The translations under genes and the position numbers were made by a program. Below, one piece after another: positions 25,735-63,380 of a DNA stretch of 64,000 nt (the first letter of the stretch is position 1; each line of letters begins with the position of its first letter). The stretch spans positions 192,796 through 256,795 of the forward strand of contig CAWFEX010000011.1 of NCBI GenBank assembly GCA_963814955.1, given 5' to 3'. Under the pieces are notes generated by a model that was not told where the DNA came from, searched no databases, and saw nothing but the letters and a program-made list of their open reading frames with translations. The DNA is from an uncultured Acidobacteriota bacterium (GTDB taxonomy: Bacteria > Acidobacteriota > Vicinamibacteria > Vicinamibacterales > UBA2999).

Positions 25735-27129
25735 ATGAATCGTGAGCGACTTCTGTCGGTCGTGCTCGTCGGACGCCCGAACGTAGGCAAATCGACGCTT
25801 TTCAACCGCCTGACGGGCCGTAGACGCGCGATCGTCACAAAAATCCCCGGCACAACGCGCGACGTCATCGCCCATCCTGCGGAATGGCGGGGACGGAAGT
25901 TCGAACTGGTGGATACGGGCGGGATGTTTGGCGCGAGTCAGGATCCTCTGCACGATCTTGTGCACGAAAGAGGCCGCCGCGCAATCGCCGCTGCGGATCT
26001 CCTTGTCCTCGTTGTAGATGGACGCGAAGGCCTCGTGCCTGGTGACTTCGACATCGCGAAAGCCGTGCGCGAGGCAAATGCGCCCGCCATCGTCGCCATC
26101 AACAAGAACGATGATCGCCGTGCCCGTTCGAGTGTCCTCGAGTTCCACCAGTTGGGTTTCGACCACGTGCTGGAGATTTCAGCGGAGCATGGGGAAGGCA
26201 CCGGCGACCTGCTCGACGTCGTCGTGGACGAACTAGGGTTGCGGGCGCCAGCCGAGGAGCGCTCAGCCGAGAAAGCGGACGAGGGGAAAGCCTCCCGCGC
26301 AAGAGCGAGAGACGACGCATCGCGCGAGGTCGGCATCGTTGTCGTCGGGCGGCCCAATGCCGGCAAGTCGTCGCTCGTCAACCGATTACTCCGCGAAGAA
26401 CGAATGCTCGTCAGCGAAACACCGGGCACGACCCGTGACGCTGTCGATGCACTGCTCACGTGGCATCGCCGGCAGTTTCGGATCGTCGACACCGCGGGGA
26501 TCCGCCGGCCCGGCCGTGTGGCACGCGGCGGTCAGGTGGAAGCGGTCAGCGTCCTGCTCGCCCGGCGTGCCATGGAATCGGCCGATGTGGCGGTCATCGT
26601 CGTCGACGCCACACAGGGCGCCACCGACCAGGACGCCGCGATTGCCGGGGAAGCGGAGAAGGCCGGGTGCGGAATCATCATCGCCGCCAACAAGTGGGAC
26701 CTGATGAAGGGGAAGGACGGCGACGTTGCGAAGGAGTTTGACGAGGCGCTCCGGCGACAGCTGAAGTTTCTCGATTACGCGCCCGTGCTGCACATCTCCG
26801 CGGTCACCGGAGAGCGCACGCCTCGATTGCTCGAGACGATCGACCGCGTGGCGGCCGCACGAACGATGCGCGTCAAGACACCTGAACTGAATGCACTGAT
26901 GAAGCAGCTCACGAGCGCGCACCTTCCGCCGAGCCGCGGCCGCACCGCGACGCGCATTCTGTACGCCGCCCAGACCGGGGTGGCGCCGCCGACCTTCGTG
27001 ATTTTCACCAACGTGGCCACCGAGCTTCACTTCTCGTACGAGCGGTATCTGGTGAATAACATTCGGGACTCGTTTGGTTTCGTCGGCGCGCCGATCCGGC
27101 TGCACGTGCGACGCCGCCGCCGAAAATAA
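25735..27129 (+). CDS. der: Ribosome biogenesis GTPase Der (EngA)
   Basis: Two tandem GTPase domains (GRPNVGKSTLFN and GRPNAGKSSLVN, each with DTGG/DTAG and NK.D) plus a KH-like C-terminus. Confidence 0.9.
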   Translation: MNRERLLSVVLVGRPNVGKSTLFNRLTGRRRAIVTKIPGTTRDVIAHPAEWRGRKFELVDTGGMFGASQDPLHDLVHERGRRAIAAADLLVLVVDGREGLVPGDFDIAKAVREANAPAIVAINKNDDRRARSSVLEFHQLGFDHVLEISAEHGEGTGDLLDVVVDELGLRAPAEERSAEKADEGKASRARARDDASREVGIVVVGRPNAGKSSLVNRLLREERMLVSETPGTTRDAVDALLTWHRRQFRIVDTAGIRRPGRVARGGQVEAVSVLLARRAMESADVAVIVVDATQGATDQDAAIAGEAEKAGCGIIIAANKWDLMKGKDGDVAKEFDEALRRQLKFLDYAPVLHISAVTGERTPRLLETIDRVAAARTMRVKTPELNALMKQLTSAHLPPSRGRTATRILYAAQTGVAPPTFVIFTNVATELHFSYERYLVNNIRDSFGFVGAPIRLHVRRRRRK

Positions 27130-27153
27130 GCCGCAGGCTGTTATACTTGCCCG

Positions 27154-27727
27154 GTGACTCCAAAGCTGTACAAAGCTTCGGAAGTCTGCGAGGCGACGGG
27201 TGTCCAGCCGTACGTGCTCCGGTCGTGGGAGAAGGAATTTCCCGGGATCGGAGTGCAGAAGTCGCTCGACTCACCGCGTCTGTATCGTCAGTCGGACCTC
27301 GACCAGGTCCTGCGTATCAAGCAGCTCGTCTTCGTCGAGGGGCTCACGCTGGCCGGGGCCAGACGGCGGCTCGAGGAAGAGTCGCCGCGGTCGAAGGCTC
27401 GCACTGCGGCAATCGCAGACGAGGTACTCGACACGCTTGGCGCAGACGCGCGATCGCGGATCGAGCTGGTTCGAACCGGTCTTCGTTCGATCCTTCAGGT
27501 GCTGTCGAAGCGCGCGGGCATGGCGACGGTCCCCGAGCTGCCACGCAACGGATGGCGCCGCGAATCGGCGCTGCGGCGGCGTCAAACCGACGAACGGACG
27601 GAGCACCGCGTCTGCCGCTGGCCGAGGTCGAACGGCGGCCAAGCCGGCAAAGCGTGCGAGCACTCCAAAGCGTGCCTCTGGCGCGCGCAAGGCGAAGGCC
27701 GGAAAACGGAAGCGCACAAGCGCTTGA

Positions 27728-27738
<11 letters not shown>
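27154..27738 (+). CDS. MerR family transcriptional regulator (C-terminus uncertain)
   Basis: N-terminal MerR HTH (YKASEVCEATGVQPYVLRSWEKEF...RLYRQSDL..VLRIKQL). The listed frame runs 11 nt into the tRNA. An alternative frame with a Lys/Ala-rich tail ends at 27727, flush with the tRNA, so an internal indel is likely. Confidence 0.7.
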
Positions 27739-27804
<66 letters not shown>

Positions 27805-27813
27805 ATTTTTCCA

Positions 27814-27859
27814 TGGTTGGTTGCAACGTAATCGCAACGGGCGCCGCGAGTGGCGCCCG
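27814..27859 (+). repeat. Conserved two-hairpin block following a tRNA-Pro 3' end (copy 1)
   Basis: ggttggttgcaacgtaatcgcaacgggcgccgcgagtggcgcccgt, with stems GTTGC/GCAAC and ACGGGCGCC/GGCGCCCGT. It is near-identical to 60138-60182. Confidence 0.7.
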
Positions 27860-27883
27860 TCGCTGTTCTGAGAGGGCCTCGCC

Positions 27884-28093
27884 ATGAGCATTCCGAAAGG
27901 CTTCGAACCGCCCGACTTGGATCCGGAAGTCCTCGCAGACGTTCAGGGAGGCCGCGAGGAATTGTTAGAGGCTGTGCGCAGAATCGCCGCCAACCAGGAA
28001 CAAACGAACAAACTGCTTAAAGAGATCCTCGCCGTGCTCATCGCCGGAAACGATGACGGCGAGAAACGTCGCTACCCGCGCGTCTTGACCTAG
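27884..28093 (+). CDS. Hypothetical small protein
   Basis: 69-aa ORF with no recognisable domain. The bases just upstream of its ATG and its first two codons are conserved at 60203, where the reading frame stops after 14 codons. Confidence 0.35.
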   Translation: MSIPKGFEPPDLDPEVLADVQGGREELLEAVRRIAANQEQTNKLLKEILAVLIAGNDDGEKRRYPRVLT

Positions 28094-28145
28094 GCGCTCG
28101 CCAACAGTCCAATCGTTCGACTGGAACCCGGCCCCTCAGAACTAG

Positions 28146-29256
28146 ATGATTCAGGTTCAATTGAAGCTCCGTCTGACGAAGGCTCAGGATCGCACGCTCG
28201 AGCGGTGGCTGTGGCATTTGACCGCCGTATGGAATTGGGCGGTAAAGACGATTGAGCGAGAGGGGCCACGGCTGTCGCTCTATACGCTCTTCGCTCGACT
28301 AGCTGGTCACGGCTCGCGGATCGGTATTTCTGGTCGTGCCGTGCTTGGGACGGCGCAGACAGCCCACGTCGCATGGCGGCGGGCGTATCGCGGTCAGGCC
28401 GGTCGGCCGCGATTGAAGGGTCTGCGGCGGCCGTTGACATCCATTGCGTTTGACTGCTGGAAAACGAAGCCGCGCGGCCGTCGTATCACCGTCCCAATCC
28501 TGGGGGCTGTGCGGTTTCATCCGCAAGACATCCCTGATGGTCACGTTGGGGCAGCGCGGCTGGTGAAGCGTGCATCGGGTTGGTATCTCTGCTTGTTCGT
28601 TCATGCTGAGCCAGCGCCGATTCAGGTGACCGGCGATGGCGAAGTCGGCATAGACCCAGGCTTCTCGTCGCTCGTCACGCTCTCAACGGGTGAGCGCATC
28701 GAGCACCCGCACGAACTACAGGCGGCGGCTGACCGTCTCGGCCAAGCGCAGCGGGGCAACCAGAAACAGCTCGCGGCTCGTATTCAGGAACGGATCGCGA
28801 ATCGTCGAAAGAACCGGAACCATCATCTCTCGCGACGGCTCGTGGCCGAGAATCGCCTCATCGTCGTGTCGGCCGATCAGCACTGCGCCGTTGCTAGACG
28901 TTTCGGAAAGTCAGTTACCAGCGCAGGACATTTTCAGCTTCGGTCCATGCTTGTGTACAAGTGCAGCCGTACAGGCGGTCGCGAGGTACATCGAAGTGTC
29001 CAATCGGCATTCCACCGCCCTTTGACGGTGCAACCGGACGCGCAACACGCGATCTTTGAAAACTGAATACCACTCCTTTTCCGTAAAGCCGGTCGGGCCT
29101 CGCGTTATGCAGGTCGGGCTAATCGCCGTCGCCGACATCCGGAATTCGCGAAAAGTGTTCAAGCAGTCAATCGCTTATCGGATGTCTCTGGTGCCAGCGG
29201 TTTGGCGGTATGCTGCGAGTACCTGGGGGCCGGTCGCGATATGCCGGTCGGCCTAA
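28146..29256 (+). pseudogene. TnpB-like (IS200/IS605 OrfB, RuvC-fold) gene, decayed C-terminal part
   Basis: The 306-aa ORF has LKLRLTKAQ, RuvC-I GIDPGFSS, and LVYKC..GGREV. The expected RuvC-II VVEDL reads VVSADQ. After about 28990 the family pattern continues in the +1 frame (IEVSNRHSTAL, an in-frame TGA at 29023, then ...IAVADIRNSRKVF, which is RuvC-III-like) up to 29256. The zinc-finger cysteines are mostly lost. Confidence 0.65.
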
Positions 29257-29299
29257 TGATTAATTGGGCTGACCATGTAAAACGGGTGGGAGGCGACGT

Positions 29300-30432
29300 T
29301 TGCGCAGGATTAAAAAGACCTTCGAACTTTCGCGCCGCGACGTGCTTCGACTCGTCTCCTCCGCGGCCCTCGGCGTCCCGTTCGCATCGTCCGCGGCTTA
29401 CGCTGGCCAGGGTGAGCGGCAGCTGCCGCACGAAGGGGTGTTCGAACTCGGGGACGTGCGACTTGAATCGGGCGTGACGCTGCCGAATGTGAAACTTGGG
29501 TACAAGACCCATGGCCGGCTCAATGCCGACAAGAGCAACGTCCTCCTCTACCCCACCCCATATCCCGCACAACACGGCGACATCGAGTGGCTGATCGGTC
29601 CGGGCCGGGCGTTAGACCCTGACAAGCACTTCATCATCGTTCTCGATCAACTGGGTAATGGCCTGTCCTCGTCGCCAGGCAACACTCCGTCACCATTCGA
29701 TCGGATGAACTTTCCGATCGTCACGATCAGAGACGATGTTTCGGCGCAGCACAGGTTGGTGAGTTCTGGATTCGGCATTCGACGAGTCGCTCTGGTGACC
29801 GGGTGGTCGATGGGCGCCCAACAAACATTTCAGTGGGCGGTGAGCCATCCGGACATGGTTGAGCGTATCGCGCCGTTTTGCGGCACCGCGAAAACGACGC
29901 CCCACAACGCCGTGTTCCTCCAAAGCGCTCGATCTGCCCTCACCGCAGATGCCGCGTGGATGGACGGCAACTACAAGGACCAGCCGGTCAAGGGGGTGCG
30001 TGCGTTTTCACACGTCTATGCCGGTTGGGCATTCTCGCAACCCTTCTATAAACAGGAACTGTACCGGGAACTCGGATTCACCTCGCTGGAAGATTTCATC
30101 ACCGGGTTCTGGGAGAAGCGATATGCGCGCCGCGACGCGAACAATCTGCTCTCCATGCTCCGTACCTGGCAGCTGAGCGATGTGGGCTCAACCGTGGGAT
30201 ACGGCGGCAGTCTCGAGCGGGCGCTGGGCGCGATCGAAGCTAAGCCACAGTCATGGCGGGAGAGACGGACCTCTACTTCACGCCAGCGGACATCGAGGCG
30301 GACGCGGCATGCATTCCCGGCGCTCGCTTCCAGGTGATTCCGTCCCTCTGGGGTCACATGGCCGGTGCCGGCCTCAACTCGACGGATTCGCAGTTCATTG
30401 AAACGGAGATCAAGGCTCTGCTTGCGATGTAA
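29300..30432 (+). CDS. Tat-secreted alpha/beta hydrolase (homoserine O-acetyltransferase/MetX-like fold), frameshifted
   Basis: Twin-arginine signal SRRDVLRLV..AAYA and nucleophile elbow GWSMGA. The C-terminus ATVMAGETDLYFTP...IKALLAM* lies in the -1 frame after a missing base near 30244. Confidence 0.75.
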
Positions 30433-31154
30433 ATTCGTGACGCGCTGTGGGCACCTGCTGTTGCAGTGCCACCTCGCGGTTTTTCGGACTGGCCGCCCGA
30501 CCAGCGTTTGCAGCACCCGGCGGCGCGCGGGGCGATCGTGAGCCGCCGCGGCTGAAACGCAGACGTTAGCTCGCGATCGACGCCGTAGCGTTTTGTCTCT
30601 CAGGACACCTGACTGACAGACGAGAGCGTAGCTGCACGTTCCCCACAAAGATCGAGCGTTGCAGGCTCACGAAATGCAACCGTGCGTGCAATCTACTGGT
30701 TGCGTCGCCAGCGCGTGCATGCTGATGTGCAAGTATGGCCGCGCCACTCTGCCGCGCAATCGGCCGCCATCCATGCGTCCTCGATCGTCGTGAATTCGCG
30801 GTTCGCTCCCACAGGGCCTAGGCGTGTTCCGAACGGGATGACATCGATCGTCACGAAGATCCCCGGTTTACGTTCTTCTACGAAGCCATCCGACCCATCA
30901 TGGTGGTGGCGGTGCCACTCTCTGAGCTTCGTCGCGTTCACCACGTTCGCCGCTAGCGATGAGGTCTTGCGCCGGTTCGAGGTGGTCATCGTATGCCGTC
31001 CTGACAGCGGGCCGCGGTGCGAGTCACGCGCATCACGAATCTCTCCGCAACGCGTTCAACAGCAGTGGCCGCTCGCAAAATGCGTCGCATGACTTGTCCG
31101 GACACTGTGTGACAGTGCCGACACTTGGAGCCCTAAATCGTCGGTCGCGATTAA

Positions 31155-31412
31155 TTTCCTCGTCGGTTAGACGACTTACAGAAGATTTCGGTCACATCGC
31201 ACGCATCACCCGACTTCGACGACCTCCCACACGAGTACCTCACCGTTCCGGATTTTGCGGCGTATCTGACGGTGGGCGACAAATTGGTCCGGAAGTGGAT
31301 CCGAGCCGGCGTGCTGCCGGCTTACCGGTTTCCGCCGGGGCCGACGGGCGAGGTGCGCATCGCGAAGGCGGACGCGATCGCGTTCATCGAGCGGGCGCGC
31401 TTTCAGAGCTAG
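31155..31412 (+). pseudogene. Excisionase-type HTH_17 (MerR-superfamily) gene remnant without a canonical start
   Basis: Manual translation gives ...EYLTVPDFAAYLTVGDKLVRKWIRAGVLPAYRF..GEVRIAKADAIAFIERARFQS*. There is no ATG/GTG/TTG upstream of the HTH in this frame. The 3' 48 nt are about 90% identical to 60401-60448. Confidence 0.5.
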
Positions 31413-31588
31413 GCCGATCGCTGCTCCTGTTGCTTACGGGTCACCTGCCATTCCGCTTTGCACTCGGAGCAATACCAGTGCAGCTGGATCTTCTCGCCCC
31501 GAATGGTGTGTTGGAGATGGACAGTGCCCGACCTGCCGCAATGAAGGCAGTGGCCTGGCCTCCGAATGGAAACCGGCGTATTGGGCAT
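31409..31588 (-). CDS. Small zinc-ribbon protein (paralogue 1)
   Basis: MPNTPVSIRRPGHCLHCGRSGTVHLQHTIRGEKIQLHWYCSECKAEWQV. It has a CxxC-x21-CxxC-x2-W pattern and about 60% identity to paralogue 2. Confidence 0.55.
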   Translation of the reverse strand: MPNTPVSIRRPGHCLHCGRSGTVHLQHTIRGEKIQLHWYCSECKAEWQVTRKQQEQRSA

Positions 31589-31700
31589 GGTGGAAACCGA
31601 GCCAGGAGAGCGTATCACGGCTACGGTTCGGGAATTTGCTGAGTATGTGACGGTCAGCCCGAAGACGGTCTGGAAGTGGATCTCAAACCGAGAGTCACCC
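31566..31700 (+). pseudogene. Second HTH_17-like fragment (3' end undefined)
   Basis: TVREFAEYVTVSPKTVWKWI matches the HTH_17 recognition helix. Similarity is lost after KWI, and the rest of the 338-aa track ORF has no recognisable domain. Confidence 0.3.
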
Positions 31701-31947
31701 AAGTCCACAGTGCTTTCGTGCGAGCCAGAAGCGGAGCGATCGAATCTAACGTGCGCATCTTCTCGAGGCTACCCGCGTCGCCGTACTGGTCTGTGGGGGT
31801 CACCGGCCACTCGGCTTTGCAGTTTGAGCAAAGCCAGTGGAGGTGAAGTCTTTCGCCGTCAATGGTGCGCCGAAGATCGACAGTCCCTCGGACGTCGCAC
31901 TGAATGCAGCGACCCGGCCTTCGAAGCGAAACCTGGGTGTTCAGCAT
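31654..31947 (-). CDS. Small zinc-ribbon protein (paralogue 2)
   Basis: MLNTQVSLRRPGRCIQCDVRGTVDLRRTIDGERLHLHWLCSNCKAEWPV. The C-terminal tail is longer than in paralogue 1 and may be frame-affected. Confidence 0.5.
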   Translation of the reverse strand: MLNTQVSLRRPGRCIQCDVRGTVDLRRTIDGERLHLHWLCSNCKAEWPVTPTDQYGDAGSLEKMRTLDSIAPLLARTKALWTWVTLGLRSTSRPSSG

Positions 31948-32385
31948 TTGTGTCGATGGCGCGAGAGATCCCACAAGGCCGCATCGGGTGGAGGCCAGCT
32001 ATGCGCTGGGGAGATCCCGCACTGCCCGCCGTGGGAGATCCCTCGCAGTCGCGGTCTGGAGCGAATTTAGTGCCGGTTCACGCGCGACAAAGACCGGCCG
32101 AAATCCGGCGGCCGACACCAGAAGTCGCCGGGCGCATGCCCTTTTTTCCTGGCAGCGCCGGAATGCGCTACGCGCACGCGATGATGAATGCCTGTTCCGA
32201 GATGGAACACGGCCGATCGCGCGCCTCTTTCCACTGGCCACTTGACCTCAAGGCAAGGCGACGCAACCTAAAAGAATCAGGAGAAATCGAATTGTTCACG
32301 GACCTGTGTGCTGGAGATCGTGCAACTCTTGACGTTGCGGAAGCCTGCTTGATAGTGCAATACATTGCAATATACGCTTCAATCA

Positions 32386-32556
32386 GTGACGCCCAAGACC
32401 GCCAGCACCTTTCGTATCGACGACGAGCTGCTCGAAGCTCTCCAGAAGGTCAAGGAACGCGACGGCATTCCGCTATCAGAACAGGTACGTCGAGCACTAA
32501 AGATGTGGCTCGAGTCGAAAGGCGTCAGGCCGAAGCTGCCGGACCGAAGGAAGTAG
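32386..32556 (+). CDS. Ribbon-helix-helix (CopG/Arc-like) protein
   Basis: STFRIDDELLEALQKVKERDGIPLSEQVRRALKMWLE shows a beta-strand plus two helices, the RHH pattern. A GTG start at 32386 is preferred over the track TTG at 32365. Confidence 0.65.
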   Translation: MTPKTASTFRIDDELLEALQKVKERDGIPLSEQVRRALKMWLESKGVRPKLPDRRK

Positions 32557-32619
32557 CAGATCGGAGACGCCGGATGCAGTGAACACCCGACGGCTCCTGA
32601 GCAAGCAGCACGCGTACAC

Positions 32620-32868
32620 GTGCCGACGAGCCTGACGAAGAGTACCACGCCAGACCCTCCGGCCTTCACACTGGAGGCCGTTATGACATCCGCGAAACCT
32701 ACAGTCGTTCCCACCCATCCCTCTCCGCGTGAGCTCGCCAGCGACTTGCAGCTGCAGCTCTTCGAACAGGCGGCGGCTGCGAGGTTGATTGCCAGACTGC
32801 TCGCGAACTTGCACAAACCGACAGCAATCTTAAGCCAGTCGCCAACGAAGTACTCGACGGCCTCGTGA
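32620..32868 (+). CDS. Hypothetical protein
   Basis: 82-aa ORF between the RHH gene and the integrase fragment, with no recognisable domain. Coding status is uncertain. Confidence 0.25.
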   Translation: MPTSLTKSTTPDPPAFTLEAVMTSAKPTVVPTHPSPRELASDLQLQLFEQAAAARLIARLLANLHKPTAILSQSPTKYSTAS

Positions 32869-32944
32869 CCGTCGCACATGGAATCGCGCGCACATGCTCG
32901 GAGGCCGGCGAAAGCATGTCGACGTTCATGAGTGACGGTGCGCG

Positions 32945-33535
32945 ATGAGTGCCACTCGGAAGCGTCGTCGCGTCGGCGGTCTGCGGAAGCGCTGCGAACA
33001 TCGGCCGGAACAGTGGCCGAAGTGTTCGCACGCGTGGCATATCAACTTCCAATGGCGGGGCGTGCACTACCGCATCAGCCTCGATCGGCATCTCGGCAAA
33101 CACATTGAAGCGAAGAGTGACGCCGAGGACGCCGCGGCGGACATCAAGAAGGCGATCAAGGCGGGGAAGTTCGGAGAGCAGCTGCCGGCAAAAGAAGTGC
33201 TCACCCTGGAGCAACTGCTGTCGACCTACATCAAGGAGTACGTCACGCCCGAACGCCCGCGCTCGCTCGTCAACGCGAAGTATCAGGCCGGTGCAATCGG
33301 TCGCCACGAGCTGACGCTGCCGACAGCCGAGCGGCGCAGGTTTGGTGCCTGGCTCGTGGCGGACGTCACGACCGGCGCGCTGGAGAAGTTCCGAGCGGCG
33401 AGCCGTGTCACGAGCCTCGTGAAATCGAAGGACAAGGACGGCAACCCGAGACGAGCTCGTCGCCAAGCTGCAGCTAGTCGAGCCCGGCGCGTCGGGCTTC
33501 GAGTTCCAACGCGTCGGGGTCGAGGTCCACGGTGA
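32945..33535 (+). pseudogene. Tyrosine integrase, N-terminal fragment only
   Basis: GLRKRCEHRPEQWPKCSHAWHINFQWRGVHYRISL... followed by a core-binding SAM-like region (LTLEQLLSTYIKEYV). The catalytic R..HxxR..Y domain is absent in all frames downstream. Confidence 0.6.
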
Positions 33536-33575
33536 CGAGGAAGTGCGGGAGACAGAGGCGTTCGACGGTCGAGGG

Positions 33576-33758
33576 CTACTGTTTCGGCGCGCCCGGTTCG
33601 TCAGTGGACCACCAGTGCCCGCAGGCGGGACAGTGAAAGATCAGCATATGCCGAAGCTTATTCTCGATGAGGGCAACCGGGCGCTCGCACACGGAGCAGA
33701 CGAGGCCGGTGTGCTTCGGTGTGTCGGTGGTGCGCGGCGGACCATCCTGAGTGGGCAT
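33576..33758 (-). CDS. Small zinc-ribbon protein (paralogue 3)
   Basis: MPTQDG...LVCSVCERPVALIENKLRHMLIFHCPACGHWWS. The start ATG overlaps the stop of the upstream ORF (ATGA). Confidence 0.5.
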   Translation of the reverse strand: MPTQDGPPRTTDTPKHTGLVCSVCERPVALIENKLRHMLIFHCPACGHWWSTDEPGAPKQ

Positions 33759-34171
33759 CACTCTCGACCGGGCGTATCGTCGTATTCCGGTACGAGGCGC
33801 CAGCCCAACTTCCAGTTCTGGGCCTGCAACTGGTCGCTCCAACGGAGTGCGCTGGTCCAGTCGTTGAAGACTCGAGACCCGAGCTTGTGGCCGTTGAGGA
33901 ACCAGGTGACGACCGCTCCGTCAGCGCGCGGACTAAGCACCGCATGCGACAACAACAGGCCATCGGCGCGATGCATTCGCCACATGACGGTCGGCGCGTT
34001 ATACACCAACTGATTGGGCACCGCACCCAAGAGGCAAGGCAGATACCAGGACAGAAAATGCCCCTTTACGCCGAAACCGAACAACGCCCGTCTTGGAAGG
34101 CGGCCAACGGGCAGACAAAGGTCAGGCCCAGATGGGGGGCGGACTGTGACCGATAGACGCGCTAGGCGCAC
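33758..34171 (-). CDS. Hypothetical protein translationally coupled to zinc-ribbon paralogue 3 (start uncertain)
   Basis: Core MWRMHRADGLLLSHAVLSPRADGAVVTWFLNGHKLGSRVFNDWTSALRWSDQLQAQNWKLGWRL, with no domain I can name. An alternative start lies at 33985. Confidence 0.4.
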   Translation of the reverse strand: MRLARLSVTVRPPSGPDLCLPVGRLPRRALFGFGVKGHFLSWYLPCLLGAVPNQLVYNAPTVMWRMHRADGLLLSHAVLSPRADGAVVTWFLNGHKLGSRVFNDWTSALRWSDQLQAQNWKLGWRLVPEYDDTPGRE

Positions 34172-34206
34172 GCTTGAATTCGCGACGTGGCGCCCACTGA
34201 AGCGAG

Positions 34207-34437
34207 GTGATACCGATGCCTAGCGCGGTCGCCGATCGCCACGCAGAACGCGTTTTGGAAAGCCTCTGCGCCTTCTGTCTCCAGCCCTTCGAGCCGACGC
34301 GCCCGCATCAACGGTTCTACCGGCCGTCATGTCGAAAGGCGCATTTCGATCAACGTCGGGAGCGCCGACCGGATCTGTTCCTGGCGTGTGCGGATGCGAT
34401 TGAATCAGCCGTCTTTGACCAACTGAATAGCCGGTGA
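34207..34437 (+). CDS. Small Cys-containing protein (zinc-finger-like C..C...F.P.R..QRF...CR)
   Basis: 76-aa ORF. The CAFCLQPFEPTRPHQRFYRPSCRKAH pattern is seen in small phage/plasmid proteins, but the second Cys pair is imperfect. Confidence 0.35.
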   Translation: MIPMPSAVADRHAERVLESLCAFCLQPFEPTRPHQRFYRPSCRKAHFDQRRERRPDLFLACADAIESAVFDQLNSR

Positions 34438-34479
34438 AAGCCGAAGGCCAGAAGCGGCTGCAGAGGAAACGAAGACAGG

Positions 34480-34668
34480 TTAGGTGCTGAGGGCATCGGG
34501 ACAGTCCCACGCGTGCTCACATGCTGGACAAAAGCGCATCATCCCGCCGTAATGGGTGGCGACGACCAGCGCCTTGCGCGACTGACACTGAGGACATTCC
34601 AGACGAAGAATTAGACCCGGGTCTGCTTTCGGAGTAGTTGCGGACGGCGGAGGATGCGTAGAGGCCAT
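34480..34668 (-). CDS. Small zinc-ribbon protein (paralogue 4)
   Basis: ...LECPQCQSRKALVVATHYGGMMRFCPACEHAWDC shares the CxxC...CxxC-x2-W layout. Confidence 0.5.
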   Translation of the reverse strand: MASTHPPPSATTPKADPGLILRLECPQCQSRKALVVATHYGGMMRFCPACEHAWDCPDALST

Positions 34669-35280
34669 GTTGGACTTCTCGCTTCAGCAGTTGCTCCCTT
34701 AGGTGAGGTTCCCGGACATGGGCAGCTCAAATGGGACAGCTCAGGAAAAAGTGATTCACCTTAACACGCAACTCAACCTGGGCCGTTGCGAGCTTAGGCA
34801 GGCTCAGTTAGTGGACCGGAGGGAGCGAACGGCTTTGGCCGAATCCGCACCGGCGGCACACGGTATCGGGCATTTAGGGTCAGGCGAGGAGATCCTAGCC
34901 CAGATGTAACGATGCTTACGCGCAGTGTTTGACGGTTGCGTGGGAATCACAATGGCGCCAGTTGAAGAGCGAGGCCGCCGAGCGTTGGACCTGGAGCCGC
35001 ATTCCCGGTCAGCGAATGTCTAGGAGCGCGAGCGGATGGCTTTGATGAGTTCGGCGATCTCGCGCGTGAGCGTATCGAGGCGTTCTTCAACTCGACCCAA
35101 TCGTTGGAAGTTTTTGCGTACGACGGCCTCGATATTCTCAAACTCGATCCGGCTCACGTTCATCGCTTCGCCGGGGAGTTTCTTACGCCGTTTCGGAGAG
35201 GGGCGACGCTTGGCCACCGGCCGAGCTTAGCTCAGACGGCTGTGTTGAACAATGTGCCGGTAATTCGCCCTCGGACCGGC

Positions 35281-36378
35281 TTACAGCACGCAGGCCTTTC
35301 CCTCGGCAATAACGTCAGCCACTCTTGCCGGCCCAATCCCACTCACGTCCTCGAGTTCATTCACGGAACGAAACGGGTGAAGCTCTCGCAGGTCGACGAT
35401 TTCCAGCGCGCGGGCCGGACCGATGTGGATAACGCCCTGCAGCTGGACGAAGTCAGCGCGGTTGATGTCGATGCAGGAAGGTGGCGGCGATGCCTCCTGG
35501 ACAGGTGAGAGAGACGCGGCCGGCGGCGGCTCCGCGCGGTCTCCGCGCTCGACACGCACCGTATACGTACCGGTCGACTGTGCTTCAACGATCACCGTGC
35601 CATTGATGTCGGTGCGGTACACGCGCGCTCCGGCGTTCGTGTACAAGTCAAGCGCAGCCCGATCGGGCTGCCCGTAACTGTTCCCGGCGCCGGCGCTCAC
35701 GACGACCACTTCTGGTGAAAGCGCGGCGATACCTTCAGCGGTGTCTCCGTTGCTCGAGCCATGGTGACTGGCCTTGTGAACCTGAACCGGCTTCAGCCAT
35801 TCGGCCTGATGCGTTCGCCACCACGCCCATTCGCGCGGCTCTGCGTCACCTGCCATCGACAGCCGGAACGCGCCGTATGCGGCGACGAGCGCCACCGAGT
35901 TGTCGTTCTGATCCCAGTCCGGAATGCCCGGTGGCGGAACCACCATCAGCGACACCTTTCCCATCGTCACTCGTCGCACGGTCGGCTCGAGGAGCTGGCT
36001 GCCCGCAGCAGCGGCGGCTTCCAGGACGCGAGCGTGCGTCTGGGTGGACGCGGCAATACCGTTCTCGAGGTAGTACGGCGGTTTGAGCGCCCTCAGGACC
36101 ATAGGCAGGCCGCCGACATGGTCAGCGTGGTTGTGCGAGGCGATGGCCAGACCGACAGAGGAGATGCCGTTCGCGGCAAGGTAGTCTCGCATCCGTCCGG
36201 AACGTTCGCCGCCGTCATAGATCACGTTCTGGCCTGTCGGACTCTGGATGAGAACGCCGTCGCCTTGCCCCACATCGACGAAATGCACGCGGAGAAGCGC
36301 AGGCTCCTGTGTTGACAGGGTCTGCACCCACGCCAGGAGCAGTACAGCCGCGAGCAGAACACGACGGCCCGTTTTCAT
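35281..36378 (-). CDS. Secreted MBL-fold metallo-hydrolase (ComEC C-terminal-domain-like) fused to ComEA-type helix-hairpin-helix
   Basis: Start MKTGRRVLLAAVLLLA (signal peptide), VDVGQGDG, HNHADHVGG, HHGS, and a C-terminal INRADFVQLQGV.HIGPARA and VSGIGPARV HhH pair. Confidence 0.8.
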   Translation of the reverse strand: MKTGRRVLLAAVLLLAWVQTLSTQEPALLRVHFVDVGQGDGVLIQSPTGQNVIYDGGERSGRMRDYLAANGISSVGLAIASHNHADHVGGLPMVLRALKPPYYLENGIAASTQTHARVLEAAAAAGSQLLEPTVRRVTMGKVSLMVVPPPGIPDWDQNDNSVALVAAYGAFRLSMAGDAEPREWAWWRTHQAEWLKPVQVHKASHHGSSNGDTAEGIAALSPEVVVVSAGAGNSYGQPDRAALDLYTNAGARVYRTDINGTVIVEAQSTGTYTVRVERGDRAEPPPAASLSPVQEASPPPSCIDINRADFVQLQGVIHIGPARALEIVDLRELHPFRSVNELEDVSGIGPARVADVIAEGKACVL

Positions 36379-36669
36379 AAGAATCCCTTGCGACGGCGAT
36401 CTTGCCATCGCCGGCTCTCGATCACAGACCGAAGTTTTCCTGCCGGTCCGCGCGAAGAACCACGAAAGACGAGGGGATCGCCGCGAAAATATTGTGCGTG
36501 CAGTGTCGAAAGTGTACGCGCATTCCCGGCGCCGTCGGTCGAACGCTGAAGCGTCCGGTCCGGCCGAAATGGTTTGTGACCGTTGCAGTTGCGGCCATCG
36601 TGGAGGGGTGCAAAACTGCGCGGGCGCACCCCTTACCACCTGGCGGACGGCATGCAGAACGGTCGAGGT

Positions 36670-37359
36670 ATGACTCGACCATTTTCAACACCGGTTGCGC
36701 TGCTGATCGCGTTGGCGCTCGTGACGCCGGCGTGTTCGGGAGGAAGCAACAACGAGAACCCCCCGTCGGGCATGGTAACCGGGCCGTCGCCCACGCCGTC
36801 GCCATCGCCGACGCCGTCGCCAACTCCAGCTCCAAGTCCGACTCCGGGCTGCTCGGCCAGCGTTACCGGTCTGCCGACGTCGATACCCGGTGCTGGCGGC
36901 CGCTTCCAGTTCGGGATCGGCGCGTCGTCAGGCTGCTCGTGGACGGCTCGGACGGACGTCGGGTGGGCCGACGTTGCTCCTGGTTCCGGTCAGGGTAATG
37001 CCTCGCCGACGCTCAACGTCAACGCGAACACGACCTTTTTCACCCGGCAGTTCACGGTCAATGTGAACGGCCAGGTGATCCAGGCAACACAGGCTGGCGC
37101 CAACTGCTCCTATACGGTGGATCCGACGTCTCTCGAAGAAAGCTTTGAGGGCGGCAGAGCGTGGGTCAACGTCTCGACCACGGAAGGATGTGGTTGGACC
37201 GTGACCGCCAGCGAAGGCTGGATACGCGTGCTGACGACGAGCGGCGCGGGGAGCGCGACGATTTTCATTGAGTTGTCGCCGAACAGCGGCGACGTGCGGA
37301 ACGCCTTCCTGACGGTCGCAGGCCAGCGCGTGGACATCAGGCAGCGGCGTCGCGGCTGA
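36670..37359 (+). CDS. Lipoprotein with Pro/Ser/Thr linker and two C..W-type beta-domain repeats (BACON-like, tentative)
   Basis: Lipobox LVTPAC, a PSPTPSPSPTPSPTPAPSPTP linker, and the repeats SSGCSWTARTDVGWA and TEGCGWTVTASEGWI. Confidence 0.6.
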   Translation: MTRPFSTPVALLIALALVTPACSGGSNNENPPSGMVTGPSPTPSPSPTPSPTPAPSPTPGCSASVTGLPTSIPGAGGRFQFGIGASSGCSWTARTDVGWADVAPGSGQGNASPTLNVNANTTFFTRQFTVNVNGQVIQATQAGANCSYTVDPTSLEESFEGGRAWVNVSTTEGCGWTVTASEGWIRVLTTSGAGSATIFIELSPNSGDVRNAFLTVAGQRVDIRQRRRG

Positions 37360-37392
37360 CACAACAACACCGGGACCGGTTTCATGACCATA

Positions 37393-37414
37393 GGGCGGGC
37401 CTTGACGGCCCGCC
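37393..37414 (+). terminator. GC-rich hairpin after the lipoprotein gene (terminator candidate, no U-tract)
   Basis: gggcgggcc-ttgac-ggcccgcc lies 34 nt after the stop codon. It lacks a T-run. Confidence 0.3.
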
Positions 37415-37435
37415 TGTGGCGCGTACGGCCTAACA

Positions 37436-37460
37436 CCTACTGCCTACTGCCTACTGCCTA
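37436..37460. repeat. CCTACTG heptamer x3.5
   Basis: cctactgcctactgcctactgccta sits in the spacer before the VanZ gene. Confidence 0.6.
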
Positions 37461-37479
37461 ACGCTCGTACACTGATTCC

Positions 37480-37866
37480 ATGAAACTCGCCCTGGTGACC
37501 TGGGCAGCGCTGTGGGCGTATGTGGCTTCACCTTTTCGCTCGTTCAGACTTCGGCCATCGTTCGAGAATGTGTCGTTGGTTCCGTTCACTGACGGCTCGC
37601 CCCGCGGAATCATTCTCAACATCCTTGCCTTCGTCCCGCTCGGGTTCTTTTGCGCTCGTTTGGGATGGAGCCCGAGGGCCGTTATTTTGATCGGGTCTGG
37701 CGTATCCCTGCTCACCGAGGTGCTGCAGCTGTTCTCGACCCGCCGGCACCCCTCGGTCACCGATCTGATCCTGAATACGGTCGGCACCCTGATCGGGATG
37801 GTCGTGGCCAGCACCATGCACAACCCGGAAACGGTCAACACGAATCAAGAGCGTCTGCATCCCTGA
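37480..37866 (+). CDS. VanZ family membrane protein
   Basis: NILAFVPLGFF and E.LQLF...R..S..D...N..G..IG motifs. 128 aa with four TM segments. Confidence 0.7.
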   Translation: MKLALVTWAALWAYVASPFRSFRLRPSFENVSLVPFTDGSPRGIILNILAFVPLGFFCARLGWSPRAVILIGSGVSLLTEVLQLFSTRRHPSVTDLILNTVGTLIGMVVASTMHNPETVNTNQERLHP

Positions 37867-60077: not shown

Positions 60078-60126
<49 letters not shown>

Positions 60127-60137
60127 CTTTTCATCAA

Positions 60138-60182
60138 TTGGTTGCAACGAAATCTGCAACGGGCGCCGCGAGTGGCGCCCGT
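60138..60182 (+). repeat. Conserved two-hairpin block following a tRNA-Pro 3' end (copy 2), followed by a T-run
   Basis: ttggttgcaacgaaatctgcaacgggcgccgcgagtggcgcccgt followed by tggcgtttt. It differs from 27814-27859 by one substitution and one 1-nt indel. Confidence 0.7.
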
Positions 60183-60220: not shown

Positions 60221-60454
60221 GTGATGGTAGCCAACTCGCGGCATAAATCTCGCCTACGACGCGGCCGCGCGGCCCTGGGTTCTATCGTGTCTGGAGTGCT
60301 GACTTTTTTCGCACTCGCGGACGTTCTGACCGTCAGCCCGGAGACTGTCTGGAAGTGGATCAAGGCAGGCTTGCTGCCGGCGTTCAAGTTCCAAGGCGAA
60401 GCGCGCATCGCGAAGGCGGACGCCATCGCGTTCATCGAGCAGGCGCGGCTTTAG
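60221..60454 (+). CDS. Excisionase-type HTH_17 DNA-binding protein
   Basis: LADVLTVSPETVWKWIKAGLLPAFKFQGEARIAKADAIAFIEQARL. It is a paralogue of the remnant at 31155-31412. Confidence 0.65.
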   Translation: MMVANSRHKSRLRRGRAALGSIVSGVLTFFALADVLTVSPETVWKWIKAGLLPAFKFQGEARIAKADAIAFIEQARL

Positions 60455-60699: not shown

Positions 60700-61960
60700 T
60701 CTTCGAGGGTTCTCCACCTGGCCGCGATGCCGCCGGCCTGACGGACCTGATGGCCGCGTCACGCTACGCGGGCGGCGGCGGCACCTCCCGTGCGATCGCC
60801 CAGATGAATCCCGTGAGCTCGCGCGCAATCGCGGTCGCGACCTTCGGCTTCGCCTTGCCGCGCGCCACCAGCTTGCGAAAGCGTGACGTCAGGCGGAGCT
60901 GCGCTTTCCACGCGATGTCACAGACGGTCTTCGGCAACGCTTCTTGCCGGTACAGCATCTGCCGTCCGATCCGCGGCACGCCCTGATACGCCCACGCCGC
61001 TTCGGCGAGCAACCGTCGCGCATGCGGATTGCCCGCTTTGGTGATCCCGCCCCGGCGGACACTCGGCCCACTCGAGTATTCCGAGGGGACCAGGCCGAGG
61101 TACGCCATCAGCTCGCGCGGATGCGTGAAGCGGCGAATGTCGCCGACCTCGGTGACCAGACCCACGGCGGTGACAAACGACACGCCGCGCAGCGCCTGCA
61201 ACGCGTCCACCACCGGCGCCCAGCGCCACGCCGGCGTGAGCTGCCGGAGTTGGTCGGTGAGCCGCTCGACCCGGCGTTCGGTCTCGTCGATCGTGTCGCG
61301 GTACTCCTGCAGCGCGATGTGCTGCGGGGCGAGCGGGAAACTGAGATCGGCCAGCCAGCGGCGATACGGGCGCGTCCACCCGGCGCGTCCCGGATAGCGG
61401 CGACCCTGACGGAGCAAGAACGCTTTCAACCGATGCTTGGCTTGGGTGCTCAGGCCGACCGCGTCTTCGCGCGCGCGCACGAGGTCACGCAGGGCTTCAT
61501 CATCGGGCGTCGGAATGTAGATCGCCGTGAGCTCGCCGGCGCGATGCAACCGGGCCAACGCATCGCCATCGCGCCGATCGGTCTTGATCCGATCGCCGCT
61601 CCGTTTCGGCATGCTCGAGGGATTGACGACGACGCAGTCTTCGCCCTGGGCGGTGAGATAGCGGTGGATCCCAAACCCGCACGGGCCGGCCTCGTACACG
61701 AAGCGCAACCGACGGTTCGGCGCCCGCAGCGCCCGCACGACCTTGGCCACCGCCTCCAGGTCGCCGGGGATCACGCCGTAGTGGCGCACTTCGCCGTCGC
61801 GCCCCTCCTCGGCGAGCGAGACGTCGATCGATTCCTTGTGGACATCCATCCCCACGAACATGCTACGTTTCGCCATGACCTGCCTCCGTTGTATGTGGCT
61901 CTGCGCGTCGCCCTCATCGGCGTCGCGTAACCCACGATTTACTACGTGAGGCAGGTCTCT
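60700..61960 (-). mobile_element. IS110-family insertion sequence (ends not defined)
   Basis: Transposase gene plus flanking non-coding DNA. No terminal inverted repeats are visible, as is usual for the family, so the borders are a guess. Confidence 0.45.
60764..61876 (-). CDS. IS110 family transposase (DEDD N-domain plus Transposase_20 C-domain)
   Basis: MAKRSMFVGMDVHKESIDV start, YEAGPCGF and KTDRRDG. The C-terminal part has LMAYLGLVPSEYSSG...GGITKAGNPHARRLL. ATG at 61876 with GGAGG six nt upstream. Confidence 0.9.
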   Translation of the reverse strand: MAKRSMFVGMDVHKESIDVSLAEEGRDGEVRHYGVIPGDLEAVAKVVRALRAPNRRLRFVYEAGPCGFGIHRYLTAQGEDCVVVNPSSMPKRSGDRIKTDRRDGDALARLHRAGELTAIYIPTPDDEALRDLVRAREDAVGLSTQAKHRLKAFLLRQGRRYPGRAGWTRPYRRWLADLSFPLAPQHIALQEYRDTIDETERRVERLTDQLRQLTPAWRWAPVVDALQALRGVSFVTAVGLVTEVGDIRRFTHPRELMAYLGLVPSEYSSGPSVRRGGITKAGNPHARRLLAEAAWAYQGVPRIGRQMLYRQEALPKTVCDIAWKAQLRLTSRFRKLVARGKAKPKVATAIARELTGFIWAIAREVPPPPA

Positions 61961-62048
61961 GCTCCGACAGCCATACTGTCTAGGCCGATCACCGACGGTC
62001 CACGGCGACGGTGGCTCTCTGATTCTCGACACCGCGAGAAAGACCAGA

Positions 62049-63380
62049 ATGACCACAGTGCTTCAAGCCACTTCGTTCGCACGAGCTCGGAACGGACGGT
62101 CCTGGCTCGCGCGCACATCATGCATCGTCACACTGCTAGCGGCGCTGATCTTGATCTTCCGACCGGCCACGAACGCAGTCGCGCAGGGAGGCCCGCAGTG
62201 GTTCTCAGCGTGGACGGTGTCCCACAACGTTCGCGAGACAGCCCCCGCCCTCAGCAGCAGCACCGTGCGCATGATCGTCCGTCCGACGATCTCAGGCACT
62301 TCGTTGCGCATCAAGCTGGAGAACACGTTGGGGCAGGGCCCGGTGGCATTCTCGGGCGCGTTCATCGGTGTGGCGGACACGGGCGCGTCGGTGATGCCGA
62401 GCACGAACACTGAGCTGAGCTTCAACGGTGGTACCAGTCTCAACCTTGCACCGGGCGCGGGGGCGTGGAGCGACCCGGTGGCTCTTGACGTGAAGGCCTT
62501 CCAGCGGTTGGCGGTGAGTCTCAACGTCGCTTCGGCGTCTGACATCAGCACGCACACGCTAGGTCTGGCGACAAATTACTACGCTCCGGGCAGCCTCGGA
62601 GCCGAAGCCTCCGGCAGTGGCTTCATGCCCGTCCCACAACGGGCCTCCGGCACCATGGTCGACGCCTTCCCGTTCTACTGGCTTGCGGCAGTCGATGTCC
62701 TGTCGCCGTTGGTCTCCGGGACTATCGTGGCGTTCGGAGACTCGATCACCGATGGACGCTGCAGCACGACCGAGAACGACGTTGTGCTGCCCGACAAATA
62801 TCTGCGCTGGACGGACGTTCTGGCAGCGCGCCTGAACTCGCGACCTGCGAGTGAAATCAAGGCCATCGCCAACGAAGGCATTGCCGGCAACCGAATCGTG
62901 TCTGGTGGCAACGGTCCTCCGGGACTTGAACGGCTTGACCGCGACGTGCTCGAACGGGCGGGCGCAACTCATGTGATCTTCTTCGAGGGAACGAATGACA
63001 TCACCGGGGGCGCCACTGCCGCGCAGGTCATCGCCGCTACGCAGCAGATCATCGACCGCGTCCACGCGAAGGGTCTTTCGATTATCGGCGTGACTATCAT
63101 TCCGCGCGGCAGGCCTGTGCTAACGGGATGGACGCCGGACATGGAGGCGCAGCGGGTGGCTGTGAACGAGTGGATACGGACCCGAGCGAACTTCGACGCG
63201 ATCATTGATTTCGATGCGTTGTTGAAGGGCGGGCCCGTTTATGCCGGAAGTGAATCGATAAAGGCCGAGTTCAATTGCGACTACACGCATCCCAACGCTG
63301 CCGGGTACAAAGCCATGGGCGAGTTCATCGATCTTGGTCTGTTCAGAACCGGCGCTGCACGGACCAACGACCGTCGCTGA
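62049..63380 (+). CDS. Secreted SGNH/GDSL hydrolase family protein
   Basis: Signal peptide, block I FGDSITDG, block III GTND, and a block V region DYTHP. Confidence 0.8.
   Translation: MTTVLQATSFARARNGRSWLARTSCIVTLLAALILIFRPATNAVAQGGPQWFSAWTVSHNVRETAPALSSSTVRMIVRPTISGTSLRIKLENTLGQGPVAFSGAFIGVADTGASVMPSTNTELSFNGGTSLNLAPGAGAWSDPVALDVKAFQRLAVSLNVASASDISTHTLGLATNYYAPGSLGAEASGSGFMPVPQRASGTMVDAFPFYWLAAVDVLSPLVSGTIVAFGDSITDGRCSTTENDVVLPDKYLRWTDVLAARLNSRPASEIKAIANEGIAGNRIVSGGNGPPGLERLDRDVLERAGATHVIFFEGTNDITGGATAAQVIAATQQIIDRVHAKGLSIIGVTIIPRGRPVLTGWTPDMEAQRVAVNEWIRTRANFDAIIDFDALLKGGPVYAGSESIKAEFNCDYTHPNAAGYKAMGEFIDLGLFRTGAARTNDRR

Follow-up and report, generated by a model that had tools for sequence, protein, structure and literature searches.

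Positions 31409-34668 of the DNA stretch studied here (hereafter the window: 64,000 nucleotides (nt), positions 192796-256795 of contig C11) hold four open reading frames (ORFs) on the minus strand, numbered copies 1 to 4 by rising coordinate. The genome, of 6.7 Mb in 18 contigs, is that of an uncultured Acidobacteriota bacterium. On sequence grounds, the identification of these ORFs as real genes, coding for zinc-ribbon mini-proteins of an unnamed family that is expanded in this lineage and housed in changeable islands, appears robust. Somewhat better than even, in our estimate, is the fuller reading that all four are genuine genes of this family, that copies 1 and 2 descend from stacked ends of integrative elements and copies 3 and 4 from a mobile module, and that their products act in trans as binding or regulatory proteins; metal binding, partners and the regulatory role are what we infer.

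31409..31588, minus strand: copy 1, A-type (defined below) zinc-ribbon mini-protein of 59 amino acids (aa), net charge +5, family profile E 2.9e-23
31654..31947, minus strand: copy 2, A-type zinc ribbon of 97 aa, core at 31786-31947, net charge +5
33576..33758, minus strand: copy 3, zinc-ribbon ORF of 60 aa, neutral, family profile E 1.6e-9
34480..34668, minus strand: copy 4, zinc-ribbon ORF of 62 aa, neutral, family profile E 5e-14

A family of stand-alone zinc ribbons

A preliminary description of this DNA had reported four minus-strand ORFs, each with two CxxC knuckles followed by a tryptophan, and all of them were found as described. The pattern that it gave, CxxC-x17-21-CxxC-x2-W, has to be corrected to CxxC-x18-22-CxxC-x3-W: the knuckles are separated by 22, 22, 18 and 18 residues in copies 1, 2, 3 and 4, and three residues lie between the last Cys and the Trp (CSEC-KAE-W; CPAC-GHW-W). 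The chosen starts are backed by the almost invariant M1 of the family alignment and by database clusters of copies 3 and 4 that are equal in length. The motif C..C-x16-24-C..C...W is found in 45 of the 107,388 six-frame ORFs of the genome (37 of these being family members) and in 0-3 after residue shuffling; since this is far above the shuffled counts, and only ~0.02 occurrences are expected per 3.3 kb, the cluster of four is not a product of chance. CxxC-x16-24-CxxC itself is present in all four ORFs and in 37 of 40 family ORFs.

Copies 1 and 2, earlier put at about 60% identity, share 32 of 54 residues (59%, E 2e-23); for copies 3 and 4 the identity is 35% (E 8e-6). Pairwise comparison of copies 1 and 2 with copies 3 and 4 gives no significant similarity, and the two pairs are joined only via the genome-wide family profile. 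Hence the view of the four ORFs as paralogues holds clearly for copies 1 and 2, whereas copies 3 and 4 are related to these, and to each other, only distantly, within a superfamily of some 40 ORFs. This superfamily was collected by iterating a profile of the four ORFs over all six-frame ORFs of the genome, and its members, of 53-75 aa, share the same layout. They are spread over 24 loci, with clusters at C4:619-637k, C9:34-36k and C15:132-138k (C4, C8-C12 and C15 are contigs of this genome; G numbers denote related genomes, L numbers metagenome contigs and P numbers database proteins). Few long genes and many small ORFs of weak codon bias characterize these loci, and the family members lie mostly in gene-poor, changeable small-gene islands. 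All four ORFs thus appear, from their sequences, to belong to one unnamed superfamily of stand-alone zinc ribbons that is expanded in this lineage. With the same profile 41 matches are counted here, whereas each of four genomes from the same genus has 1-9 and each of 26 other relatives has 0-4; this contrast is somewhat inflated because the profile was built from this genome.

Several subtypes can be recognized. The A-type, with the consensus MPxTPVxLxVPxxCxxCGxxGTVxLQQTIxGExxxLxWxCxxCxAEWPVRRKxE, comprises copies 1 and 2 together with those at C10:81753 (88% identical to copy 1), C15:608842, C15:484419 and C15:132678. Further subtypes are typified by MPNTNxPLPIRCPKC...SLPPExQERI, by CPFC...VTTTSKA...YWRC..CG.IWN and, in a very basic group, by a C-terminal ERRxGxPDRR...DRR tail; the remaining members, including copies 3 and 4, are singletons. 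When scored against 1.84 billion representative proteins, the A-type profile matched 937 representative clusters with E<=1e-3, 147 of them with E<=1e-10; the best matches, about ten long proteins of the DUF4379 kind aside, are of 52-80 aa, start with MP(N/E)TP and keep all Cys and Trp. The preliminary description had stated that an absence of homologues elsewhere, together with codon-position statistics devoid of a coding signal, would count against its reading; as to homologues, what we found were hundreds of metagenome clusters matching the A-type. A word-indexed search with the alignment as query returned 18 matches, unnamed or "hypothetical" except for one "transposase-like", 17 of the 18 being without a precomputed Pfam domain, and the same search with copy 1 alone gave no match. 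A narrow alignment searched for related loci yielded one irrelevant genome match, one metagenome orthologue and no viral match. A-type members turned up in 2 of the 401 genomes sampled from the phylum and, within the genus, in a single further genome; the A-type is hence rare in reference genomes despite its hundreds of environmental clusters. Copies 3 and 4 are already called as genes in public collections, where they fall in 90%-identity clusters of 3 and 15 members and where the exact sequence of copy 3 is present. ORFs resembling copy 4 occur singly in two other genera of the bacterial family, one of them beside rpmE. Long "fusion" homologues from the representative search look like over-called ORFs of high-GC DNA or unrelated DUF4379-type repeats, and were rejected as clues from fusion.

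The preliminary description argued that the peptides are under selection. This is upheld for the family of copies 1 and 2, where the ratio of non-synonymous to synonymous substitution rates (dN/dS) among A-type paralogues, 0.08-0.46, points to purifying selection: copy 1 gives 0.13-0.46 against its paralogues (0.13 against C15:608k, 0.35 against copy 2) and copy 2 gives 0.28-0.42. Moreover, the hundreds of A-type clusters elsewhere keep the start, the length and every Cys and Trp. For copies 3 and 4 selection is only weakly shown. Over their 366 coding nt, comparison with close relatives shows 7 codon changes that are synonymous, 11 that are non-synonymous and not a single indel, as against 8 indel positions in the 497 intergenic nt of the same comparison; the missing indels and the 7:11 count are weak evidence of constraint. 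The claimed frame of each of the four ORFs is the best or tied best of the six by codon score.

That the family fits no named domain, as had been surmised, was confirmed for the 39 members whose library scores we compared with curated cut-offs: none reaches the cut-off of a model in Pfam, NCBIfam, PHROGs or PADLOC. Sub-threshold matches are spread over zinc_ribbon_4, IS1595, Lar, DnaJ CXXCXGXG, DUF7836, Elf1 and TFIIS. An AlphaFold2 (AF2) model of copy 1 from 32 sequences has a mean predicted local distance difference test (pLDDT) score of 68, with 73-79 in the core, and places a hairpin of strands 23-30 and 33-40 beside a third strand at 46-48; the predicted topology is, with moderate confidence, that of a classical zinc ribbon. 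In such a fold the two CxxC knuckles would hold one metal ion, and the hairpin plus the third strand would carry the invariant Trp. Foldseek against the PDB returned Rpp21, Trm112, the NrdR zinc ribbon, Elf1 and RPB9, with a best E of 0.3.

Some further features of individual members deserve mention. A conserved Arg-rich C-terminal tail, approximately ERR(V/I)GxxDRR-x4-6-DRRR, raises the net charge to as much as +13 and was matched to no known family; it is carried by C15:163450, C15:137738, C4:1041189 and C9:719 and by P0001, P0031, P0032, P0034, P0099 and P0156. At C4:636773-637249 an A-like gene is frameshifted just past the Trp relative to its orthologue P0034, with loss of the ERRxGLPDRR tail, and is followed by an HTH_17 start fragment and an apparent tRNA gene on the opposite strand. 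P0030 is an apparent fusion of a copy-4-like half to an A-type ribbon, on a contig with many split genes. Genes of the CPFC...YWRC..CG.IWN subtype adjoin cold-shock (CspA-like) genes, upstream on the same strand at two loci and divergently at one (loci C4:996875-997367, C8:38894-39383, C4:1045827-1046552 and C4:635179-635382), and another such cold-shock gene lies <=1.5 kb from an A-like copy. Near-identical GYD-domain-like genes of 108 aa (MPLYLS(R/K)FSYTPETWARLISNPEDRR…) stand beside two zinc-ribbon islands, at C15:609215-609541 and C4:623809-624135.

Element ends, a mobile module and a shared leader

The genomic context of copies 1 and 2 is that of an island bordered by a tRNA gene:

27729..27805, plus strand: tRNA-Pro(GGG), found by ARAGORN and Rfam, an integration hot spot at the island border
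31236..31412, plus strand: HTH_17 (Xis/AlpA-like) gene, PF12728 at 34.4 bits over model positions 1-50, converging on copy 1
31620..31690, plus strand: second HTH_17 gene, an N-terminal fragment overlapped antisense by the copy 2 tail

The earlier characterization of these surroundings as decayed is correct: the region after the tRNA is a stack of element remains, including a broken TnpB, a hydrolase and an integrase N-terminal-like fragment (recognized by eye, without a Pfam match). The alpha/beta-hydrolase-like ORF at 29300-30432 (plus strand) is apparently frameshifted, a fitting C-terminus being visible by eye in another frame at 30253-30432. The 3' part of the tRNA-Pro plus the next block recurs at C10:82207-82269, beside an HTH_17/zinc-ribbon pair, and at 60092-60182 of the window.

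Positions 31236-31947 form two units, in each of which an HTH_17 gene faces a convergent A-type zinc-ribbon gene. The preliminary description had noted excisionase-type fragments converging on or overlapping copies 1 and 2, and the convergence and overlap are real, but the gene that faces copy 1 has a full HTH_17 domain. It has no canonical start before the first helix, the first start being the GTG at 31272, inside the domain; its stop codon and that of copy 1 overlap within CTAG on opposite strands. The second HTH_17 gene is a fragment, 94% identical to C10:82028-82062 and 84% to C4:637182-637213, and its translation ...VTVSPKTVWKWI agrees with an intact 77-aa paralogue. The tail of copy 2 that runs antisense over it is a 43-aa 3' extension, shared by the 97-aa orthologue P0035.

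The convergent unit of window positions 31236-31588 has counterparts at C10:81753-82168 (91% identical, adjoining a tRNA-Pro 3' fragment), at C15:608k (80% identical) and on metagenome contig L047, which is orthologous to C15:608k and where HTH_17 is intact and overlaps the zinc-ribbon stop by 4 nt. Because an equal unit recurs at these three places, the adjacency of copies 1 and 2 is best read as that of stacked element ends. Two related ends, each with the order tRNA-Pro 3' piece, Xis-like HTH_17 and converging zinc-ribbon gene, would have brought the two copies, and their stacking at the tRNA-Pro hot spot would have made them neighbors.

To the question, raised in the preliminary description, of whether homologues always lie next to HTH_17 genes and near tRNA-Pro, the answer is negative: of the 6 closest loci of the copy 1/2 type in this genome only 3 do so, plus the one orthologous metagenome contig. 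There is no HTH_17 neighbor at the A-type loci C15:484k, C15:132k and C9:35k, at the orthologue in G004 (which stands beside an FHA gene), or on three metagenome contigs (those of P0024, P0036 and P0039, whose shortness leaves little context to read), one of which has an adjoining BON gene. The HTH_17 pairing is a trait of one type of tRNA-Pro element end and not of the family. The window has a second tRNA-Pro locus, whose HTH_17 gene (60221-60454, 77 aa) is intact and directly followed by an IS110-family transposase gene (60764-62056, minus strand), which sits where the other units have their zinc-ribbon gene.

Copies 3 and 4 have a different setting:

33554..34914, minus strand: module of copy 4, Trp-rich gene and copy 3, 1.37 kb, recurring in other contexts
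33758..33985, minus strand: gene for a Trp-rich 75-aa protein (33761-33985), the likely true extent of a 137-aa ORF, with the best codon score in the module
35020..35217, minus strand: basic, coiled-coil-like small ORF of 65 aa upstream of copy 4, without a family match

In the module, copy 4 is followed by a 300-nt spacer, the Trp-rich ORF and copy 3. The Trp-rich protein has no Pfam or NCBIfam match and shows the motif …VTWFLNGH.LG.RVF.DWT.AL.WSD.LQAQNW.(L/V)GWRLVPEYDD, which in its C4 copy is split over two frames. Its homologues at G001:C8:141453-141668 and G007:C115:1705-1914 (71% and 58% identity) stand alone, with no zinc ribbon beside them. Copy 3 had been described as translationally coupled to its upstream ORF. 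The overlap exists, though it is of a single base (TGATG, not ATGA), and the coupling is local, since the Trp-rich homologues of two related genomes stand alone.

The part of the module without copy 3 is duplicated at C4:625491-626512 with 96.9% identity (the copy 4 duplicate, C4:625615-625800, being 97% identical). The whole module is found in metagenome contig L059 (94.8% identity) between C4-like flanks, and the Trp-rich gene with copy 3 in L058 (97.2%) between flanks like DNA of C12, C9 and C10. The frame of copy 3 is undisrupted in both L058 and L059 (97% and 95% DNA identity). As the junctions in L058 and L059 fall at zinc-ribbon loci, the islands of small genes are apparently hot spots of recombination. 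Copies 3 and 4 flank the Trp-rich gene in a 1.37-kb module that would recombine between islands. The cluster of four ORFs comes from element-end stacking plus a mobile module and is not a dedicated four-gene system. L058 and L059 join, at 95-99% identity, segments that lie here on five contigs (C4, C9, C10, C11 and C12). The basic ORF upstream of copy 4 represents a type of 65-67 aa (…KRR.K.PG(E/D)A..VSR.EFENIE…), a paralogue of which (C4:1041511-1041714) comes directly after the zinc-ribbon gene C4:1041186-1041380.

A k-mer screen of 40 regions upstream of family genes, followed by nhmmer, revealed one more shared feature:

31950..32159, minus strand: conserved leader of ~200 nt directly upstream of the copy 2 ATG, with a 116-nt core at 31960-32080

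There are seven copies of this leader in the genome by nhmmer, four of which lie immediately before zinc-ribbon genes and end 2-11 nt before the ATG: those of copy 2, the C10 A-type gene (leader at C10:81534-81742), the A-type gene at C9:35k (C9:35260-35477) and an MPNTN-subtype gene at C15:137k (C15:137391-137584). The proteins behind these four copies belong to two subfamilies and share only ~20-60% identity. No zinc ribbon follows the leader at C15:608431-608616, C8:666532-666714, C4:972151 (partial) and G004:C19:3159-3343. RNAalifold predicts that the core forms a long irregular hairpin with a GCGAGAGRTCC/GGGATCTCTCGC stem, an inner stem and an apical CAGC...GCTG hairpin. Among seven sequences, 93.6% of the cells at the predicted pairs can pair, while controls with slid partners reach 33-49%. 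Double changes occur at three pairs, and many one-sided changes lead to G-U, in keeping with an RNA of the same sense as the gene. Single-sequence folds have the same architecture, with z of -1.4 to -4.4. A covariance model found six copies here and one in a sister genome; a strictly filtered search of 119 other genomes of the bacterial family gave none. Rfam has no match for the leader, only tRNA-Pro being found in 27000-37500 at E<=0.1. As the sequences are few and closely related, we treat the leader as a lead rather than a demonstrated RNA element; its presence before some family genes suggests, on this predicted structure, a common control after transcription. Upstream of the 40 family genes no consensus of the extracytoplasmic function (ECF) or sigma-70 type is enriched, 13 of the 40 having a Shine-Dalgarno-like motif, and a promoter and terminator scan of 31000-35400 stayed at chance level. 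If the leader is a true RNA element, it offers a direct experimental handle on the control of these genes.

Candidate functions of the mini-proteins

The family proteins are most likely small binding modules that would act in trans, regulating or adapting a cellular machine. We favor this view because they are too small for enzymes, have no constant partner, vary in charge and resemble docking ribbons; a survey of neighboring genes at the 24 loci found no recurrent operon partner. The basic members, that is copies 1 and 2 and their Arg-tailed relatives, probably bind nucleic acid, and the neutral ones, copies 3 and 4, probably bind protein.

Several observations weigh against our interpretation of the four ORFs. 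Their codon-usage scores, -0.05 to +0.07 per codon, are near zero; they lie between those of random small ORFs (-0.12 +/- 0.14) and long genes (0.157 +/- 0.086), as expected for acquired genes. Copies 3 and 4 diverge from their close relatives by 3.9-4.3%, which is not lower than the intergenic 3.6%, and the gene at C15:608k differs from its L047 orthologue by only 3 changes, 3 of them non-synonymous and 0 synonymous, too few to be informative. Copy 2 has lost its ancestral stop and may be decaying. The confidence of the AF2 model is moderate and the fold matches are not significant, and among the haloarchaeal micro-proteins considered below there are CxxC pairs that bind no zinc (PMC11241148). 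The leader, which rests on seven sequences from two genomes, could be a repeated promoter segment instead of a functional RNA.

Among other explanations, the preliminary description had proposed regulators or anti-defense and addiction components. That the proteins are anti-defense cargo of mobile elements, for example in Lar-like restriction alleviation or as small immunity inhibitors, we consider unlikely. The placement of copies 1 and 2 at integrative-element ends in the tRNA-Pro island agrees with it, as do weak matches of seven members to Lar_restr_allev (best E 1.3e-4), of copy 1 to TIGR03655 (E 0.008) and of eight members to phrog_10675, a phage family without assigned function. However, every Lar score is below its cut-off: 22.6 bits for the best member and 15.9 for copy 1 against 28.6, and 16.5 for copy 1 against 39.6. 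PADLOC-DB gave two marginal matches for the 39 members (E 0.0027 and 0.0096), neither of which involves the four ORFs, no close relative was found in the viral contigs of IMG/VR, and many members lie in ordinary chromosomal contexts, with FHA, BON, cold-shock, rpmE or polysaccharide deacetylase genes as neighbors.

An A-type ribbon could alternatively work with the Xis-like HTH_17 protein encoded next to it, as its co-factor or antagonist, and so control when the tRNA-Pro element excises or in which direction the reaction runs. To this we give a small chance. Four loci retain the tight convergent pairing with overlapping stops despite divergence to ~80% DNA identity, among them the orthologous metagenome contig with its intact HTH_17, but as the four loci copy one element type the linkage may merely be inherited. 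Furthermore, the A-type genes listed above do without HTH_17, no intact integrase gene is nearby, and the second tRNA-Pro locus has HTH_17 without a zinc ribbon.

Comparably improbable is the proposal that certain ORFs (copy 3 or 2 would be the best candidates) are non-functional, whether decaying, products of chance or remnants of TnpB TNB or IS1595 fingers. The weak codon scores and near-neutral rates of copies 3 and 4 speak for it, together with the reading of copy 2 through into antisense HTH DNA, the frameshift at C4:636773 relative to P0034 and a match of copy 3 to Cas12f1-like_TNB (E 6.7e-4) with a broken TnpB 4.5 kb away. Lengths, starts and all Cys and Trp are nevertheless kept in every copy and in the outside clusters of 3 and 15 members, and the indels of the intergenic DNA are absent from the coding parts. 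Copy 3 was rejected as a TnpB/Cas12f TNB finger (PF07282), scoring 20.2 against 26.3 bits with no RuvC context or D-R-D motifs and with an unrelated Trp-rich protein gene upstream. The IS1595 ribbon (PF12760) and DUF7836 (PF25206) were likewise rejected, their best scores (~19.6 against 25.4 and 22.9 against 26.7 bits) being in other subfamilies; copy 4 scores 12.7 bits for DUF7836 and 10.6 for IS1595. Finally, a role as toxin-antitoxin or addiction components of a decayed island is highly improbable: the genes are small and lie in a mobile-element graveyard, with a ribbon-helix-helix (CopG-like) gene at 32365-32556 and a ParE/RelE-like pair beside the C10 copy, but no gene is steadily paired with any zinc-ribbon subfamily across the 24 loci, the CopG-like gene is 400 bp off on the other strand, and the ORFs have no toxin-like neighbors and match no toxin-antitoxin family.

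Relation to known zinc ribbons

To place the family of trans-acting modules that we favor among known zinc ribbons, we compared it with four groups. The nearest folds and profiles are three-stranded ribbons of transcription and translation proteins (the C-terminal ribbon of RPB9/TFIIS, Elf1, the N-terminal ribbon of NrdR, Rpp21, eS27 and L37Ae), and RPB9/C11 end, like the family, in CxxC...CxxCxxxW; at 15-25% identity and Foldseek E >=0.3 the likeness is in fold class only. A profile search of PDB sequences retrieved, besides eS27, RPB9/C11 and an HVO_2753-like ribosome-bound protein, a zinc_ribbon_5-type finger (2nb9_A, E 1.7e-4), which we take to be the ZitP zinc ribbon. The MJ0042/ZitP ribbons (PF13717/PF13719, TIGR02098) resemble the family in their CxxC-x(~19)-CxxC with an aromatic residue four past the last Cys, and 12 family members weakly match PF13717. 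The zinc_ribbon_4/5 cut-offs of 30.3 and 29.3 bits are not reached, the best of the 39 members scoring ~19.8 and the four ORFs lower. ZitP and its relatives are larger membrane proteins with the ribbon as their N-terminal domain, whereas here the ribbon makes up the whole protein; the ZitP ribbon is a protein-binding module that binds PopZ (PMC5182065). Lar proteins (PF14354, TIGR03655) are likewise small zinc-ribbon proteins of similar size, weakly matched by copy 1 and by members of the CPFC subtype, but they are prophage-borne and have a C-terminal part that is unmatched here, and most family members lie outside prophages.

The haloarchaeal C(P)XCG micro-proteins (HVO_0758, HVO_2753, Brz) are, like the present family, single-domain proteins of <70 aa with two Cys pairs and mostly unannotated. 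Haloferax volcanii has 43-49 paralogous zinc-finger micro-proteins (PMC10716476, PMC11241148), and in both groups a single genome holds dozens of paralogues that have diverged. Of 16 deletion mutants, most had a phenotype (PMC10716476), and Brz acts on bop transcription (PMC2253796); known members are regulators, or affect motility and biofilm formation. Weak matches of the haloarchaeal type were seen, to NF041912 (HVO_0758; E 8e-4 for copy 4) and to PDB chains 9e71_Bc and 8q5b_A, at scores below the cut-offs (19.2 against 70 bits for NF041912, 16.4 against 27.2 for PF19769). The present family differs in being bacterial and without significant sequence relationship: the second knuckles read CSECK, CSNCK, CPACG and CPACE, so that a G follows the second pair in copy 3 only, and in the A-type CxxCG is confined to the first knuckle. 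The A-type has in addition a signature of its own, namely MPxTPV, GTVxLQQTIxG, the invariant Trp at +4 and EWPVRRK. By analogy, we raise as a speculative and rather doubtful possibility that the family of this soil bacterium forms a bacterial counterpart of the haloarchaeal C(P)XCG repertoire, with ~40 fast-diversifying adaptors spread by island recombination and a subset wired to one structured leader RNA; if so, the leader could be a shared sensor or a binding site of the proteins themselves, with autoregulation in the manner of ribosomal proteins. The tight A-type subfamily has hundreds of environmental relatives and yet is covered by neither a Pfam nor an NCBIfam model, and none of its members has been studied. 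Small proteins routinely escape annotation or receive no name; naming and modeling this family would improve the annotation of soil metagenomes and provide a bacterial point of comparison for the haloarchaeal zinc-finger micro-proteins.

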